A stretch of 64,000 bases of DNA from the UHGV virus genome UHGV-0312702; one strand, given 5' to 3'. How positions within the stretch are numbered: the stretch's first letter is position 1; the number at the start of each line of letters is the position of its first letter. A model generated the notes under the pieces. The model searched no databases. It saw only the letters and a program-made list of their open reading frames with translations, and was not told where the DNA came from. The position numbers were made by a program, and so were the translations under genes. This stretch comes from a virus. Below are positions 33,158-54,140 of this stretch, in pieces.

Positions 33158-34264
33158 TTATTCGCCTTTAGCATCAGCGCGAACATCTACCAGCAACTGA
33201 GGACGAGTACAGTATGGCAGCATGTAAGAGTGAGCTTCGAAGTCAATACCTTCGTCACGGTCTTTTTCGTATTCGAATACGTACAGTTCCTGACCAAGTG
33301 TATTTGCGTAACCCATCTTAGGACATGGACCATATGCAACTTCGAAGATGTTGTTAGCTTCACCCAGCATAGATACGTTAGGGAAAGCATGACCAACACC
33401 AACAGTGTCTGCTACGCTGTCAATGCTCACCAGAGTGTGAACCTTACCACGCTTGTCTTTGAACTTACCGTTGTACTGGACAAACTTAACACCACCGTAG
33501 TAGAAAGTGTTCATGTGAGCCTGAACGCCGTCAGTACCACCAGTTCTCAGAGAACCAGTAATCTGTTGCCAAGCCAGCGGAGTCTGCTGTGCAAGATAAG
33601 CGTCACGAATCTTAGGATGCTTAGTCAGCTTGCTGAAGAATACACGGTCAACAACTACGTGAATTTCTTCACCGTTGATTACAGTGCCAGTCTTAGCTTC
33701 GTCTTCCATGTGCATACGAAGTTCTTCAATAGAAGCGTCGATGTCAGCATTAGGGTTGTCAAGGTCGAAGTAAATAGTCTTCTTCTCAACGTCGAACTGC
33801 TTGTACAGGTCAGCGTACAGAGTACCACGAGCATCAACAACTTTACCCTTCAGAGCTTGCATGAACAGGAACTCACGAGTAATATCGAACTTGGTACGAA
33901 TCTTCATCAGCTTCTTAGCACGTACTACAGCTTCAGTAGTCAGTTCGTTTGCAGTGCCTGGCTGACGTACACCCTGAATTTCATCAGGAGTAATGCTTTC
34001 AACTTCTTTGAAGTACATCATTGGGAAGCTGATTTGACGAACACGCTCAGGTGCGCTAGTCTCTGCTTTACGGCTGTCACGGTCTACCGCATCAAGCAAG
34101 CTAACATCCCAATCAGTCAAGTCCATAAGGAAAGTAGTTTGGGTGATTGGTGCTGAACGGAACAGACCTAAGTTGGAAATATACCCATAAGTATTTGGGA
34201 TAGACTGGACTTCACCAGTCAGGTCAGCAAGGAAAAATCTGCTTTTTTCAGAATTAGTCAACAT
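33158..34264 (-). CDS. putative major capsid protein
   Basis: 368 aa, follows protease/scaffold and small decoration-like gene. Confidence 0.55.
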   Translation of the reverse strand: MLTNSEKSRFFLADLTGEVQSIPNTYGYISNLGLFRSAPITQTTFLMDLTDWDVSLLDAVDRDSRKAETSAPERVRQISFPMMYFKEVESITPDEIQGVRQPGTANELTTEAVVRAKKLMKIRTKFDITREFLFMQALKGKVVDARGTLYADLYKQFDVEKKTIYFDLDNPNADIDASIEELRMHMEDEAKTGTVINGEEIHVVVDRVFFSKLTKHPKIRDAYLAQQTPLAWQQITGSLRTGGTDGVQAHMNTFYYGGVKFVQYNGKFKDKRGKVHTLVSIDSVADTVGVGHAFPNVSMLGEANNIFEVAYGPCPKMGYANTLGQELYVFEYEKDRDEGIDFEAHSYMLPYCTRPQLLVDVRADAKGE

Positions 34265-45581: not shown

Positions 45582-45938
45582 TTAAACCATTGTAATTCCA
45601 CTATGAACCTCTCTGTGGCAATTAGCGCATAGCAAAACACATTTATCAAGTTCTTTTTTAACCTTTTCCCAAGATGCACCCATAAGTTTTGATGGTGTAT
45701 TCTCTTTTTCGTTTGGGTTAAGGTGATGCCATTCTAAAGCATTTTTACATTTATTATAGCCACAAATTATGCAACTATCGCCATAAAGCTTATATGCTTT
45801 CTCCCTATTGGCATCCTCTCTAAGTTTTGTCCTTAATGCACAACATTTTAGACAATTTACTCTATTACCGGCGTTACCATTCTTATGAATGCTATGTTCA
45901 GTTAAACCATGAACTGGACATTCTTTTAAAAATCTCAT
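45582..45938 (-). CDS. HNH endonuclease
   Basis: EWHHLNP and CANCHREVH motifs plus Cys pairs; start at ATG 45938 with RBS AAGGGG; track start 46016 runs through tRNA-Pro. Confidence 0.7.
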   Translation of the reverse strand: MRFLKECPVHGLTEHSIHKNGNAGNRVNCLKCCALRTKLREDANREKAYKLYGDSCIICGYNKCKNALEWHHLNPNEKENTPSKLMGASWEKVKKELDKCVLLCANCHREVHSGITMV

Positions 45939-45955
45939 AGTAACCCCTTTAAATT

Positions 45956-46032
45956 TGGTCTCTGTTGGAGGACTTGAACCTCCGGCCTTACCGCCCCAAA
46001 CGGAACGCTCTACCAAGCTGAGCTAAACAGAG
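45956..46032 (-). tRNA. tRNA-Pro (anticodon UGG)
   Basis: acceptor CTCTGTT/AACAGAG; loop TTTGGGG. Confidence 0.6.
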
Positions 46033-46197: not shown

Positions 46198-47613
46198 TTA
46201 CCAGATGTAACGGTCAATCATTACTGCTTTGAGCATTACGCTGATTGGGTCAAACTTCTCACCACCAAGCAGGGCTTTTAAAGTGGCTGGGGAGAACCCT
46301 GATACCATTGCTACACCGTTATCCTTAACAGACACTTCGCAAGTACCACTACGGTTTGCTAAGTACCAGAATACCAGTTGTGGCATTTCGTATCCAGCTT
46401 TTTTGTACTTACTACGAATTGCTTCAAAGTTTGTACGACCATTTGCACCATCAACCTGATTGAACTCCATATCAGAGAAGATGATAAGCTTACTTGGCAT
46501 ATCTTTCTGAGTCAAGTTGTTTCTCTTGCCTGTCTCAAGAATACGGTCAAAAGCTGCTTGTAAGTTGGTTGAACCATATTCAACATGACGCATTACCTGA
46601 CGGTGACGGTTTCGTAAATCACCACTCAGTTCGATGAAATGAGGGTTTGTTGAATAAACCATTAACTCGTTCTTAAAGCAACCTGTATTGCGTTCTGCTA
46701 CATACAAGGCAAGTGATACACCAATATCGAGGGCAGTAATTGAGCCAAGATTCACCCAAGACATTGAGCTTGAAACATCAGTCATACACAAGATGTTTTC
46801 ACCTTCTGCCATCCAGTTTGGTAGTGCTTTCCACTGCTCATTAGCAACATCTGCATTACCATACTTGATAGATTTAATCACATCGTATGGATAAACAGCA
46901 CCAGCATTAATCTTAGTCTCACCCTTTGATAAGGACTCAACGTAAGCTTTGTAGCGTTCTCCATCTTTACGGTTAAATAATTTTTGGTAACGTGCAGCAG
47001 CAAGTGAAGGAATCTTACTGTAGTCAATCTTACCAAACTCATTAGCAGAGATTTTTTGTTCAACTGTATCAGATAGTGCAGACAGCAGTGTGCGGTACTC
47101 TTTCTCGCTCAAGTTTGCAAACTTACAGAAACGTTTTACAAACTGTTTGTGACGTGGTTTTACTCGTGGTAACCACTTAGCTGCTAAACCTGCTGTTGCA
47201 GGGTCTAGTAAAGCTGCTTCTAAATGTTTGAAGGCATCTGTCTCAAAACGAGTACCTACAAAGATTTTGAAGTCATCAAAGCGACCAAGCTCTGCAATCT
47301 TATCCATAATGCGAAGAACCTGTGTAGGCTCTAAAACTTTATCTTCAATCGCTTGAAGTAAAACAGTTCGGAAAGCCTTACGCTCACCCATACCTTCTCG
47401 TACATCTCGCATATGCAGTAAAATACGAACTGCAACATCAACATCCTCATGCAAAGCTTTGTAGAACAAGTCTGGTAAGATTTCTACATTGCTACGGCTA
47501 GAACCAGCAGCTTTGTAAAAGTCTACAAGAGCAGACATTGATGAAGTATGGTTTACAGCACCATTTTCAGTTCGACCTGCATGAAGGTGCGCATGTTTAA
47601 ATAATTCGCTCAT
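46198..47613 (-). CDS. Ro60/Rsr-like protein (TROVE-like N-terminus + vWA domain)
   Basis: MIDAS DVSSSM plus LGSI, GSTN...IIFSDMEF segments resembling Ro60 vWA as recalled from memory. Confidence 0.55.
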   Translation of the reverse strand: MSELFKHAHLHAGRTENGAVNHTSSMSALVDFYKAAGSSRSNVEILPDLFYKALHEDVDVAVRILLHMRDVREGMGERKAFRTVLLQAIEDKVLEPTQVLRIMDKIAELGRFDDFKIFVGTRFETDAFKHLEAALLDPATAGLAAKWLPRVKPRHKQFVKRFCKFANLSEKEYRTLLSALSDTVEQKISANEFGKIDYSKIPSLAAARYQKLFNRKDGERYKAYVESLSKGETKINAGAVYPYDVIKSIKYGNADVANEQWKALPNWMAEGENILCMTDVSSSMSWVNLGSITALDIGVSLALYVAERNTGCFKNELMVYSTNPHFIELSGDLRNRHRQVMRHVEYGSTNLQAAFDRILETGKRNNLTQKDMPSKLIIFSDMEFNQVDGANGRTNFEAIRSKYKKAGYEMPQLVFWYLANRSGTCEVSVKDNGVAMVSGFSPATLKALLGGEKFDPISVMLKAVMIDRYIW

Positions 47614-48066: not shown

Positions 48067-48294
48067 TGCTATGCCTCTTATAAGACCTCTTAAAAGGCTT
48101 TTAAGATAAAAGATAGATATCCAGAAAGATATCTGTTTAAATAGCCTTTTTAGAGGAACCTTTTAAGTTATCTTCTAAGTATTTATAAGCCTATACCTTG
48201 TCAAGCCCTTTGTCAACAACTTTTTTAACTTGCAATAGTTCTTGACTTGTTGTATGGATTACTGTACCATCTTACTTAAAGCTGTAGGTCTGCC

Positions 48295-48692: not shown

Positions 48693-49276
48693 CAGTAAGT
48701 TTTAATTACAATAGTGACGGCTCTGTATCAATTAATTCACCATATGCAAATGACCTATTGAAAGAGCTAGTTAATCAGTGTGATAGAGGTCTTCACTATG
48801 TTCCAAATTCTTTTAAGCAGAAGACTATTGCTAATAACTTGATGCGCGTGACGGTTACAACATCAAACCCAAACTATGACATTGATAGTGAAAGTCCTTA
48901 CTCTTTAGTGGCTCTTGGAGAATGTAGTCAATTCAAACTTGTATGTCACGACTCAGAAACATTTCTTAAGGTGTTTTCAAACCTTATTCATAATAACAAG
49001 TATGGGTATGTTGATGGGAGTGTTAACTTCTATCCAGCGAACTATACCTGTCTATTAATTGATAATATGAGAAGTAGCAAGCAAGAACCTACAGAGATTT
49101 CATTTGATGTGAACTCTAGTCCAGACGCAGAAACAAGTAATAACTTTGATATGAGTTACGCATTATCACTTAGCAAGAAATCCGAGTTCATTGATTATGT
49201 CAATGGATTTGGTTTTAAGTTTGACGAGAGCATGAATCTCAAAAAGCTTAAGAACCTACTTAAGACCAAAGCTTAA
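48686..49276 (+). CDS. hypothetical protein
   Basis: 196 aa ORF. Confidence 0.45.
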   Translation: MLTVSFNYNSDGSVSINSPYANDLLKELVNQCDRGLHYVPNSFKQKTIANNLMRVTVTTSNPNYDIDSESPYSLVALGECSQFKLVCHDSETFLKVFSNLIHNNKYGYVDGSVNFYPANYTCLLIDNMRSSKQEPTEISFDVNSSPDAETSNNFDMSYALSLSKKSEFIDYVNGFGFKFDESMNLKKLKNLLKTKA

Positions 49277-49323
49277 GTATAAACAGGGGCTAATGCCCCT
49301 TTATCTATTTATAAGGATATTTA

Positions 49324-49695
49324 ATGAAGGCTAAGAGTGCAAAAGACTTTTATTGCTTCCTACAATCCTATATTAATTCCGTGGAGAAAGGTGAGAGATA
49401 TAATCTTAACGATGTTATTGCATCACCTTTAACATGGAGACTAAGTAGATGGCCTGAAGAAGATATCACACCAACTAGTGAACACCCTACCTACAAACCA
49501 GATATTAATCTCCCAGATTCAGAAAAGTTACTATACCCAATGTTCCACATTGTTGGGCTTGGTACGTTTCTTATGGATATTCAGTATGTAATTGGTAAGG
49601 GTTATAAGGTAGAAGGTATTGTTGTTGGTGATGTATCTCCACAACATAAAGGCTATTTTAGATTAAACGCACGTTTAGAGGCTAAAAAGAAATGA
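49324..49695 (+). CDS. hypothetical protein, paralog of N-terminal domain of next gene
   Basis: shares KAK..DF..F..G.RY...YKPD...LLY...MD(I/L)QY with 49692-50825. Confidence 0.5.
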   Translation: MKAKSAKDFYCFLQSYINSVEKGERYNLNDVIASPLTWRLSRWPEEDITPTSEHPTYKPDINLPDSEKLLYPMFHIVGLGTFLMDIQYVIGKGYKVEGIVVGDVSPQHKGYFRLNARLEAKKK

Positions 49696-50825
49696 TTAAA
49701 GCAAAGACTTACCCAGACTTCAAAGAGTTTGTAAAGGGCTTCGTTGCAAATGTAAAGGCTGGTAAGAGATATGATTTTAGAACATATCAAGAAGCTATTT
49801 TGCCACTTACCTATAGTTCATATTGGCCTGAAGCTGATATCGCAGAAGTTGAGAAGTTTGACTACAAACCAGACTACAAAGTACCTTTTAGTGATGATTT
49901 GCTTTACAGCATCGGTGCTCAAATGAGAACTTCTGACTTCTTCATGGATTTACAATATGCAATTGTCAATGGTAAAGATGTTGATACAGTGTATTGTGAA
50001 TGGTTGGCAAGAGTTAAGCCGTTCTCAATGTTAAATGCTAAGTTGAAGGATGCTATCAAACCACCATCAATCACTCAGCAACCAACCAATCAGACAGTTA
50101 ATGAGGGCGGTACACTTACCTTAAGCATTGTTGCAGCTAATGCCACAGGGTATCAGTGGAAGAAGGGTGATGAGGATATCACTAGTGCTACCTCTGCAAC
50201 TTACACAAAACAGTCAGTTGTTCCTTCTGATGCTGGTTCATACACTTGCGTTGTGTCTGGAGAGGGTGGAACAAGTGTAACTTCAGATGCAGCAACAGTC
50301 ACTGTGAATGCCTTACCAGTGATTACCAAGCAACCTTCTAACCAGACCATTAATGAAGGTGGAAACATCAGCTTAGCAGTTACTGCAACAGGTGCAACTG
50401 GTTATCAATGGAAGAAAGATGGTTCTGACATCCCTTCAGCTACAAATGCCACATATAGCAAATCTGGTGCACTTCCAGCAGATGCTGGTTCATACACTTG
50501 CGTTGTAACAGGTGCGGGAGGTTCTGTAACTTCTAACCCTGCAACAGTTACTGTGAAAGCTCTACCAGTTATCACTCAACAACCAACCAATCAGGAAATC
50601 ACTGAAGGTGAGACCTTAACGCTGAATGTTGTGGCAACAGGTGCAACAGGTTATCAGTGGAAGAAGGGTGGGGAAAACATCCCAGATGCAACGACTGCAA
50701 CTTACACCAAAGAGGGTGCAACTGCTGCTGATGCAGGAAGCTACACTTGTGTAGTTACTGGCGCAGGTGGCTCTGTAACATCTAGTGCGGCAACAGTTAC
50801 AGTTAACCCAGCAGGGGAGGCATAA
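49692..50825 (+). CDS. protein with three tandem Ig-like domains
   Basis: three ~90 aa repeats with YQWKK and GSYTCVV(T/S)G motifs. Confidence 0.6.
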   Translation: MIKAKTYPDFKEFVKGFVANVKAGKRYDFRTYQEAILPLTYSSYWPEADIAEVEKFDYKPDYKVPFSDDLLYSIGAQMRTSDFFMDLQYAIVNGKDVDTVYCEWLARVKPFSMLNAKLKDAIKPPSITQQPTNQTVNEGGTLTLSIVAANATGYQWKKGDEDITSATSATYTKQSVVPSDAGSYTCVVSGEGGTSVTSDAATVTVNALPVITKQPSNQTINEGGNISLAVTATGATGYQWKKDGSDIPSATNATYSKSGALPADAGSYTCVVTGAGGSVTSNPATVTVKALPVITQQPTNQEITEGETLTLNVVATGATGYQWKKGGENIPDATTATYTKEGATAADAGSYTCVVTGAGGSVTSSAATVTVNPAGEA

Positions 50826-51289
50826 TGCAACTCTCAAGAAAAGGTTTAGAAGCTATTAAGTTCTTCGAAGGTCTGAAGTTAGAGGCTTACGAAGACTCTG
50901 CCGGAATCCCAACAATCGGGTATGGGACAATCCGTATTAACGGAAAACCTGTTAAGATGGGTATGAAAATTACTGCTGAACAAGCTGAACAGTATCTTCT
51001 CGCGGATGTTGAGAAGTTTGTTGCAGCAGTGAACAAAGCTATCAAGGTTCCAACTACTCAGAACGAGTTCGATGCACTTGTAAGTGAAACATACAACATT
51101 GGTATCACAGCTATGCAGGATTCCACATTTATCAAGCGCCACAACGCTGGTAATAAGGTAGGTTGTGCAGAAGCTATGCAGTGGTGGAACAAGGTTACAG
51201 TCAAAGGTCAGAAGGTCACTTCAAACGGACTGAAAAACAGACGTAGAATGGAAGCTAACATTTATCTTGACAGTGTATATCCAAAGTAA
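50825..51289 (+). CDS. endolysin, T4-lysozyme-like (GH24)
   Basis: LEAYEDSAGIPTIGYGT catalytic region. Confidence 0.85.
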   Translation: MQLSRKGLEAIKFFEGLKLEAYEDSAGIPTIGYGTIRINGKPVKMGMKITAEQAEQYLLADVEKFVAAVNKAIKVPTTQNEFDALVSETYNIGITAMQDSTFIKRHNAGNKVGCAEAMQWWNKVTVKGQKVTSNGLKNRRRMEANIYLDSVYPK

Positions 51290-51298
51290 TATCTTCAT

Positions 51299-51322
51299 AG
51301 GCTCCTTCGGGAGCCTTTTTTA
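51299..51322 (+). terminator. intrinsic terminator after endolysin
   Basis: AGGCTCC-ttcg-GGAGCCT followed by TTTTTT. Confidence 0.7.
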
Positions 51323-53421: not shown

Positions 53422-53640
53422 ATGAAAAAACTAACTACAGTTGAAGATTACTACAAACTGTCTTTATTAGAACAGTATCGTAGAAGCCAGAACATAAGAA
53501 AGTGCTACGGTAAACACGCTGAAGGTGACTTCTACCATTGCTACGATGCAGATTTAAAAGGTGTAACACCTAGAGGAAAAGTCCTACAAAGACTTGTTGA
53601 CCTTGAGTGGAACAAACGATTGAGAGGGATTGGAAAATGA
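53422..53640 (+). CDS. hypothetical protein
   Basis: 72 aa ORF. Confidence 0.4.
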   Translation: MKKLTTVEDYYKLSLLEQYRRSQNIRKCYGKHAEGDFYHCYDADLKGVTPRGKVLQRLVDLEWNKRLRGIGK

Positions 53641-54140
53641 TTTATGAAGAAAGATACAAAATAGACTATCAAGATACTCGTCATCACACCTCTTTGAGAG
53701 TAACCAAACCAAATGGGGATACCGGTATCATAGCACACTTTGGTGGTGATTATTGGTACGGTACAGGTTGCTTTGAAGGCTACACTCAAGAATACTTGAA
53801 AGCTTTCTACAGAGACTTTACAAATGACTACAACAGAGTTGTTGAAGAGAAGAATAAGTGCATTAAGCATGAATACCATGCCAGAGGTTGTCTGAATATT
53901 GCTATGATACTGGTTTTCTTCTTAGCAACATTACTAGCCGTATCAGCAATCAGCTACATAGCTCAAGACTTGACCATTACACAGATTACCGCAAAGGTAT
54001 ATGATGTTTGGTACTTGTATGCTGTTCCTTTAGCTGGTATCATCATCTCACTACTAAGATTCAGAGTTCATAAGAAACGACTTAAGGACTCGGAGATTAA
54101 ACTTGAAGAGGTAAGTAAAGAATGCAACCTACAATTATAG
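53637..54140 (+). CDS. membrane protein
   Basis: TM segment NIAMILVFFLATLLAVSAISYI plus a second hydrophobic stretch; ATGA-coupled start. Confidence 0.45.
   Translation: MIYEERYKIDYQDTRHHTSLRVTKPNGDTGIIAHFGGDYWYGTGCFEGYTQEYLKAFYRDFTNDYNRVVEEKNKCIKHEYHARGCLNIAMILVFFLATLLAVSAISYIAQDLTITQITAKVYDVWYLYAVPLAGIIISLLRFRVHKKRLKDSEIKLEEVSKECNLQL

Follow-up and report, generated by a model that had tools for sequence, protein, structure and literature searches.

T4 Hoc and Hex-Dec of phage Bas63 are both non-essential monomers that are positioned at hexamer centres of the capsid and display a string of Ig-like domains, and a Hoc-like function was proposed for the Bas63 protein when it was named (PMC12609058). 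The two differ in how they are attached to the capsid. Specifically, Hoc binds through its C-terminal domain, whereas the capsid-binding domain of Hex-Dec (CapBD) is N-terminal, larger, of distinct topology and with minimal sequence conservation relative to the binding domain of Hoc (PMC12609058); with respect to the descent of the binding domain, Hex-Dec is outside the Hoc family. Hex-Dec also differs from Hoc in its occupancy: Bas63 Hex-Dec and its counterpart gp20 in Shigella phage Sf14 are monomers at the centres of only the pentamer-proximal (edge) hexamers, and 60 of the 80 hexamers in the T=9 capsid carry the protein (PMC12609058, PMC11821841). Sf14 gp20 was detected by mass spectrometry (MS), and its N-terminal helical binding domain of 118 aa is anchored by Arg79 and Arg107, which form salt bridges to MCP Asp221 (PMC11821841). 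In the Bas63 map the Ig-like domains following CapBD were not resolved, and the number of Ig-like domains varies between one and four across the genus (PMC12609058). For both phages, the published accounts place the gene at a distance of over 10 kb from the structural module (PMC12609058, PMC11821841), and the Sf14 paper compares the Hex-Dec-type architecture with that of decoration proteins having a single Ig domain (PMC11821841).

An ortholog was encountered earlier in Felix O1, where gp36 was identified in purified virions by MS in 2010 (14 peptides, 44% coverage) and where the authors remarked that this "tail protein" gene is situated far from the morphogenesis genes (PMC3185647). In the same study the transcripts of ORF36 and ORF37 peaked at 60 min together with those of the morphogenesis genes, and those of ORF35 (lysin) and ORF38 peaked at 25 min (PMC3185647). 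For Bas63, a genome-wide knockout screen gave neutral scores for loss of the Hex-Dec gene g124 in MG1655 (+0.3 to +0.4) and weakly negative ones in S17-1 (-0.1 to -0.2; bioRxiv 10.1101/2024.10.10.617714). Capsid location, binding residues, presence in the virion, late transcription and dispensability have been shown in orthologs.

Here we report on a locus in a stretch of 64,000 nucleotides of the virus genome UHGV-0312702 (referred to as the window). The window represents a Felixounavirus, i.e. a Felix O1-like myophage, and its DNA is 91-94% identical to more than 200 Felixounavirus genomes, with phages of Escherichia, Salmonella and Shigella among the relatives that were matched. The structural module (terminase, portal, MCP, sheath, tape measure and fibres) is on the minus strand at approximately 16.9-40 kb, and the translated MCP has exactly the N-terminus that PMC3185647 gives for MCP of Felix O1. 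A cluster of 25 tRNA genes (40.4-46 kb) separates this module from the Ig locus and is followed by a Ro60-like gene, a DUF5681 gene and, from ≈48.3 kb, a cluster of genes on the plus strand. The gene encoding the Ig-like protein is located roughly 10 kb past the terminase-side border of this structural module and on the opposite strand, and its position outside the structural operon, as stated in an earlier note on this DNA, is therefore correct.

The 377-aa product of this gene was matched over its full length in a PDB sequence search to chain S of 9NCF, the Bas63 capsid (E=1e-297), which is deposited as "Immunoglobulin-like domain protein" of phage Bas63/JohannRWettstein, and to chain S of 9C2D/9C3A, i.e. 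Sf14 gp20 (E=2e-169). Arg79 and Arg107 are present in the window protein and Asp221 in the window MCP. The gene also occupies the expected syntenic slot, 3' of a gene for a 123-aa paralog, 5' of a GH24 lysin gene and away from the structural module. Judged from its sequence, the 377-aa protein is an ortholog of Hex-Dec and Sf14 gp20, and the finding of an Ig-like protein at this position is as such ordinary and already known. Overall, we estimate a probability of roughly 0.93 that the 377-aa protein is Hex-Dec and that the 123-aa protein is a late duplicate of CapBD which is probably not stoichiometric in the virion. No result speaks against the Hex-Dec assignment.

The closest described system is Bas63, in which CapBD of Hex-Dec (gp124) is ≈98% identical to that of the window protein, the order paralog, Hex-Dec, endolysin is the same and both arginines are present; it differs in having four Ig repeats compared with three in the window. 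Sf14 gp20 shares with the window protein the three Ig repeats and the N-terminal capsid-binding domain, and its gene is likewise flanked by a paralog gene upstream (gp21) and a lysin gene downstream (gp19), but Sf14 belongs to a different genus (Mooglevirus) and its Ig repeats have diverged further. In Felix O1 the corresponding genes are ORF37 (123 aa, paralog), ORF36 (294 aa, Hex-Dec) and ORF35 (lysin); here ORF36 differs from the window gene by encoding two Ig repeats, the second of which is a hybrid. PHROG families annotated as "Hoc-like head decoration" match the window protein in its Ig part only (residues 121-371). The Ig domains of the single-Ig decoration proteins 5LXK and 8ZVI match window repeat 3 (E=4e-12 and 7e-12, respectively), but unlike Hex-Dec these proteins have an unrelated capsid-binding domain and one Ig domain only. 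We take 5LXK to be T5 pb10.

The assignment bears on how this protein is annotated. It carries the label "tail protein" in many (hundreds of) GenBank records and in PHROG 3995, and Felix O1 gp36 was named "major tail protein" in 2010 (PMC3185647), from which the label in GenBank and PHROG 3995 appears to descend. The proteome behind that name showed presence in the virion only (PMC3185647), whereas two cryo-EM structures, PDB 9NCF and 9C2D, place the protein on capsid hexamers. A role as a tail protein is thus barely conceivable: the location given by the label for Felix O1 gp36 and PHROG 3995 is wrong, and the protein should be annotated as a capsid decoration fibre.

The region 49324-51289 consists of three tightly packed genes, all on the plus strand, and the features of the locus are listed in Table 1. 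Consecutive genes overlap at their stop and start codons, the paralog and Hex-Dec genes in ATGA (49692-49695) and the Hex-Dec and endolysin genes in TAATG (50823-50827). The Felix O1 genome paper lists the same 5' hairpin among its rho-independent terminators (PMC3185647), and this hairpin is kept in Bas63, mio and Z31. Together, the overlapping codons and the bracketing terminators suggest that the three genes, including the lysin gene, may be read as one transcript; against this, the peak times obtained by RT-PCR in Felix O1 differ between ORF35 and ORF36/37 (PMC3185647). As to promoters, a candidate phage-specific motif upstream of the paralog gene, TATTTATAAG, recurs at 48180, and with nine matches compared with 9.1 expected it is not enriched. 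Sigma-70-like sites in the 48-52 kb region are at chance level (9 vs 10).

Table 1. Coordinates of features at the Hex-Dec locus and of the MCP gene in the window
Feature	Position	Strand	Basis or remark
Terminator-like hairpin AGGGGC-TAAT-GCCCCT with T-rich tail, 3' of a 196-aa gene	49285-49300	+	5' block boundary
Ig-less CapBD paralog, 123 aa, pI 8.6	49324-49695	+	ORF and protein alignment
Hex-Dec, Hoc-like hexamer-centre capsid decoration protein, 377 aa, 39.6 kDa, pI 4.8	49692-50825	+	PDB matches
CapBD of Hex-Dec, aa 1-120, with Arg79 and Arg107	49692-50051	+	Residue check
Ig-like repeat 1, aa 122-206	50055-50309	+	Pfam and repeat alignment
Ig-like repeat 2, aa 207-289	50310-50558	+	Pfam and repeat alignment
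Ig-like repeat 3, aa 290-372	50559-50807	+	Pfam and repeat alignment
GH24 endolysin, 154 aa	50825-51289	+	PF00959 Phage_lysozyme, E=5e-41; endolysin in the annotation of relatives
Strong terminator-like hairpin AGGCTCC-TTCG-GGAGCCT followed by TTTTTTATTTT	51299-51316	+	3' block boundary
MCP, 368 aa, Asp at 221, binding partner of Hex-Dec	33158-34264	-	N-terminus as in Felix O1 MCP

The earlier note had placed the Ig gene directly before the endolysin gene, which agrees with the PF00959 match of the 154-aa ORF, and had proposed that the protein is either a surface-binding accessory or a lysis-associated factor, in contrast to Ig-like proteins that decorate virions. The contrast does not hold, given that orthologs are seen in the capsid maps (9NCF_S and 9C2D_S) and by MS of virions. 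For the same reason the 377-aa protein would be a virion protein and not a lysis factor, and the MS detection of Felix O1 gp36 and Sf14 gp20 speaks against the absence from virions that the note had considered. The first of its two proposals is near the published Hoc-like function; a role in lysis is unsupported.

That the Ig-like protein, its paralog or both act with the endolysin, for instance in cell-wall targeting or lysis timing, could be argued from the tight packing of the genes, the stop/start overlaps and the common flanking terminators, and from the adjacency of a CapBD gene and a lysozyme gene, which is kept even in distant relatives. However, orthologs of the Ig-like protein are capsid-bound (PMC12609058, PMC11821841), and no transmembrane segment, signal peptide or holin-like feature was seen in either translated sequence. 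Moreover, Felix O1-like phages are devoid of a lysis cassette and have their lysis genes scattered (PMC3185647); in Bas63 the annotated holin and spanin genes are at distant sites (g29, g153, g89 and g90). Knockout of g124 was neutral and that of the endolysin gene g123 deleterious (bioRxiv 10.1101/2024.10.10.617714), and in Felix O1 the transcription peak of the lysin gene differs from that of ORF36/37 (PMC3185647). We consequently regard a function in lysis as very improbable; the position next to the endolysin gene reflects a gene order that happens to be conserved and not a functional link.

Turning to the upstream gene, its 123-aa product can be aligned along its entire length to residues 2-119 of the Ig-like protein (121 aa, 36% identical, E=2e-17), in keeping with the duplication of the N-terminal domain that had been read from the sequence earlier. 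The similarity is far beyond chance and, on this alignment, the 123-aa protein and the Hex-Dec N-domain are genuine paralogs. PDB sequence searches with the 123-aa protein gave two matches only, to 9C2D_S and 9NCF_S in their N-domains (E=3e-12). The same two chains were the only matches of an AF2 model of the paralog (TM ≈0.6, probability 1.0); this model is of moderate confidence (pLDDT 65, pTM 0.67) and was used for the fold match only and not for surfaces. Equivalents are Felix O1 ORF37, Bas63 gp125, Sf14 gp21 and VpaE1 ORF40c, and the family corresponds to PHROG 4463 with the annotation "unknown function".

The paralog gene adjoins the Hex-Dec gene in approximately 233 of 253 Ounavirinae records (Felixounavirus, Mooglevirus and Suspvirus), where the protein is 75-96% identical, and in a distant 87-kb metagenomic phage it is present at 48% identity with the gene order unchanged. 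Word-indexed protein searches gave close orthologs only, whereas an exhaustive profile search among 1.8 billion representatives reached distant CapBD proteins, with only 12 CapBD clusters in total. The distant proteins are encoded by a single-copy gene in the same syntenic slot and carry as C-terminal module Big_2, a single Ig domain or a Lys/Ser-rich tail. Since a lone gene combining CapBD with another module occupies the slot in these relatives, the paralog is best seen as a tandem duplicate that arose in the Felix O1-like lineage.

The dN/dS values of the paralog, 0.07-0.30, are indicative of purifying selection, which is stricter for CapBD (0.02-0.06). All orthologs of the paralog have Gly in place of Arg79 and Gln or His in place of Arg107, and the protein is basic compared with CapBD, for which the pI is 5.5. 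Furthermore, the gene is a pseudogene in ≈20 natural isolates, approximately 8% of the relatives (mio, Z31, the REP series and FGS030). These copies have lost the ATG and have an internal deletion of ≈220 nt, and they keep the 3' end with the ribosome-binding site of the Hex-Dec gene. The occurrence of the pseudogene in some 20 isolates implies that any role of the paralog is dispensable.

Published virion data were surveyed for the paralog. Felix O1 ORF37 has a late transcript and is not in the published list of virion proteins (PMC3185647), a list that was filtered at ≥25% coverage and from which a 14-kDa low-copy protein could escape. VpaE1 ORF40c stays "hypothetical" after a virion proteome of 22 proteins (FASP LC-MS/MS), which extended the Felix O1 list by no more than gp54, gp58 and gp68. 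The paralog has no PDB entry of its own, neither cryo-EM study reports extra density on the other hexamers (PMC12609058, PMC11821841), and the paralog is not discussed in either paper; the Bas63 paper contains no proteomics and the Sf14 supplement uses "gp21" only for a protein of phage SPP1. Knockout of Bas63 g125 was non-essential or noisy across strains (bioRxiv 10.1101/2024.10.10.617714). Taken together, we infer that the paralog is a functional but dispensable late protein which has the capsid-binding fold without the known anchors, and that it is probably not a stoichiometric component of the virion.

What such a protein might do can be read in different ways. One is that it is a second, Ig-less decoration protein, which caps the 20 true three-fold hexamers or competes with Hex-Dec and so adjusts the density of fibres. 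The shared CapBD fold, the purifying selection, the translational coupling to Hex-Dec and, in Felix O1, the late transcription together with Hex-Dec (PMC3185647) would all fit, as would its basic character (pI 8.6), given that capsomer centres are lined by Asp (PMC11821841). In addition, the true three-fold hexamers show Asp221 differently (PMC11821841), such that the altered contact residues of the paralog could fit there, and in one distant relative the sole copy of CapBD is in a protein without Ig domains. Nevertheless, both cryo-EM studies report no density on other hexamers (PMC12609058, PMC11821841), the protein is missing from the virion proteome lists of Felix O1 and VpaE1 and it has lost both anchoring arginines, which makes a second decoration protein doubtful.

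Another reading is that the paralog now serves a purpose that has nothing to do with the capsid, e.g. as trigger or counter of a host defence system. The gene for Bas63 gp125 is one of the few that were cloned for further work in the PhageMaP defence screen, its knockout gave noisy scores in the different strains and the paralog evolves faster than CapBD. On the other hand, no result of the cloning is given and no gp125 phenotype is reported in the PhageMaP text, the validated triggers are only g40 and g123, and the linkage and coupling of the paralog gene to Hex-Dec are conserved. The gp125 primer counts in the PhageMaP supplements do not split a "trigger" from a "counter" candidate. We find a recruited function of this kind quite improbable.

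We favour instead a non-virion accessory role, transient or regulatory, whose target would be the prohead, the three-fold hexamers left unoccupied or Hex-Dec. In its more specific form, the paralog would be a factor in head assembly or in the control of decoration, acting transiently at the hexamer centres of proheads or at the 20 true three-fold hexamers, or pairing with Hex-Dec. This is tentative and, so specified, unlikely; if true, the pairing with Hex-Dec would set why the Ig fibre sits on only 60 of the 80 hexamers. Among the readings of the paralog we rank a transient or regulatory role first, followed by a second decoration protein of low copy number and, last, an unrelated recruited function. 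The interest that remains at this locus concerns the paralog only, as it could explain the 60-of-80 occupancy which was left open in the two cryo-EM papers (PMC12609058, PMC11821841).

For Hex-Dec we propose that, late in infection, one monomer would plug its CapBD of ≈120 aa into each of the 60 pentamer-proximal hexamers, where Arg79 and Arg107 would form salt bridges to Asp221 of MCP and from where the three flexible, acidic Ig-like domains would project outward as a fibre. This fibre is expected to be dispensable in the laboratory and may adhere weakly or cause aggregation, with cell surfaces, mucus or further particles as the partners; by analogy with what has been proposed for T4 Hoc, this is its most likely function. 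The 123-aa gene would in this scheme be a tandem duplicate of CapBD and a late gene that is functional but no longer encodes the two anchoring arginines, and its product would act transiently on the capsid or on Hex-Dec.

Finally, the fibre itself varies in length. The earlier note had described three tandem Ig-like domains, and the Pfam scan and the alignment of the units agree on this. Specifically, Pfam gave three stretches matching Ig_3, I-set or Ig_2 (Ig_3 E=4.7e-33) and no match for residues 1-120, CapBD being without a Pfam model. The motifs YQWKK and GSYTCVV are present in each unit, and the units, the borders of which were defined from the protein, show mutual identities of 62-73% at the protein and 67-69% at the DNA level. 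The DNA identity is under the threshold of Tandem Repeats Finder, which for this reason missed the Ig repeats. Window repeat 3 corresponds to Bas63 repeat 4 (84 of 88 residues identical), and Bas63 repeat 3 is missing from the window as a clean indel of one unit. Felix O1 and EF202P1 have proteins with two units, and here unit 2 is a hybrid with its joint at YQWKK: the N-terminal half matches window unit 2 (30/36 in Felix O1 and 34/36 in EF202P1) and the C-terminal half window unit 3 (47/52 in each). One-unit forms have kept either unit 1 or the last unit.

The hybrid and one-unit forms indicate that the number of Ig units has shifted repeatedly by in-register recombination between units, a reading which is consistent with, and slightly sharpens, remarks already published (PMC12609058, PMC11821841). 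As a capsid fibre Hex-Dec could serve for display, and recombination of this kind would make it a natural scaffold of adjustable length.

The Hoc-like capsid decoration protein Hex-Dec has two Ig-like units in Felix O1 and EF202P1 (loci L005 and L002), and the second of these is a hybrid: its N-terminal half is that of unit 2, its C-terminal half is that of the last unit, and the junction falls at the YQWKK motif. This hybrid shows that the number of domains in Hex-Dec is altered by in-register recombination between the repeats.

The stand-alone 123-aa paralog of the capsid-binding domain (CapBD) is present as a pseudogene in approximately 20 Felixounavirus records, as illustrated by aligning the phage mio and Z31 loci with the window (see the table). 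The lesions comprise an internal deletion of ≈220 nt, loss of the start codon and small frameshifts, and the preserved 3' end retains the Hex-Dec RBS. Phages carrying this pseudogene are natural knockouts. In Shigella phage Z31, which likewise lacks the paralog, the Hex-Dec annotation is split between ORFs of 135 aa and 56 aa, implying that the Ig part is truncated or frameshifted; either a genuine loss or an error in sequencing could account for this.

The locus layout is preserved in three distant metagenomic relatives (L010, L013 and L016), with genes for Ro60-like and DUF5681 proteins divergent from those for a 62-aa protein, an approximately 185-aa protein, the CapBD protein and a lysozyme. 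In these relatives the CapBD is encoded only once, and the display module attached to it is a different one, either Big_2 or a Lys/Ser-rich tail lacking any Ig.

With respect to database annotation, the "tail protein" label on Hex-Dec is a propagated mis-annotation, and through UniRef it reaches even the 123-aa paralog. A paralog with 99% identity is found in a record titled "Staphylococcus phage SA1", so its organism name seems incorrect for a genome of the Felix O1 type.

Locations of features at the locus, in its surroundings and in relatives
Feature	Location	Strand	Remark
HNH-type endonuclease	window 45582-46016	-	mechanical ORF, TTG start
tRNA-Pro	window 45956-46032	-	
Ro60/TROVE-like vWA protein	window 46198-47613	-	DUF2828 + DUF7788; adjoins 25-tRNA cluster
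Region aligned to paralog pseudogenes	window 49276-49692		
Paralog pseudogene, mio	L003:2806-2998		
Paralog pseudogene, Z31	L004:2805-2998		
Hybrid Ig unit comparison	window 50310-50807		
Hex-Dec, Z31	L004:2998-3570		
Positional ortholog of Bas63 gp116	window 53607-54140	+	two hydrophobic segments, C-terminal
CapBD locus, distant relatives	L010:5001-5462; L013:869-1489; L016:3182-3799		

Among the neighbouring genes, the HNH-type endonuclease gene is homing-endonuclease-like and embedded in the tRNA cluster; as mechanically called its ORF overlaps the tRNA-Pro gene, and the true start is probably an internal ATG (MRFLKECPVH...). The Ro60/TROVE-like protein has an ortholog in the Felixounavirus relative Bas63, gp130, which reportedly counteracts the "ppl" defence system and still functions after transfer into T7. 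Judged by position, the protein encoded at window 53607-54140 is orthologous to gp116 of Bas63 ("membrane protein"), which reportedly matters more when the host is E. coli S17-1 than with other hosts.
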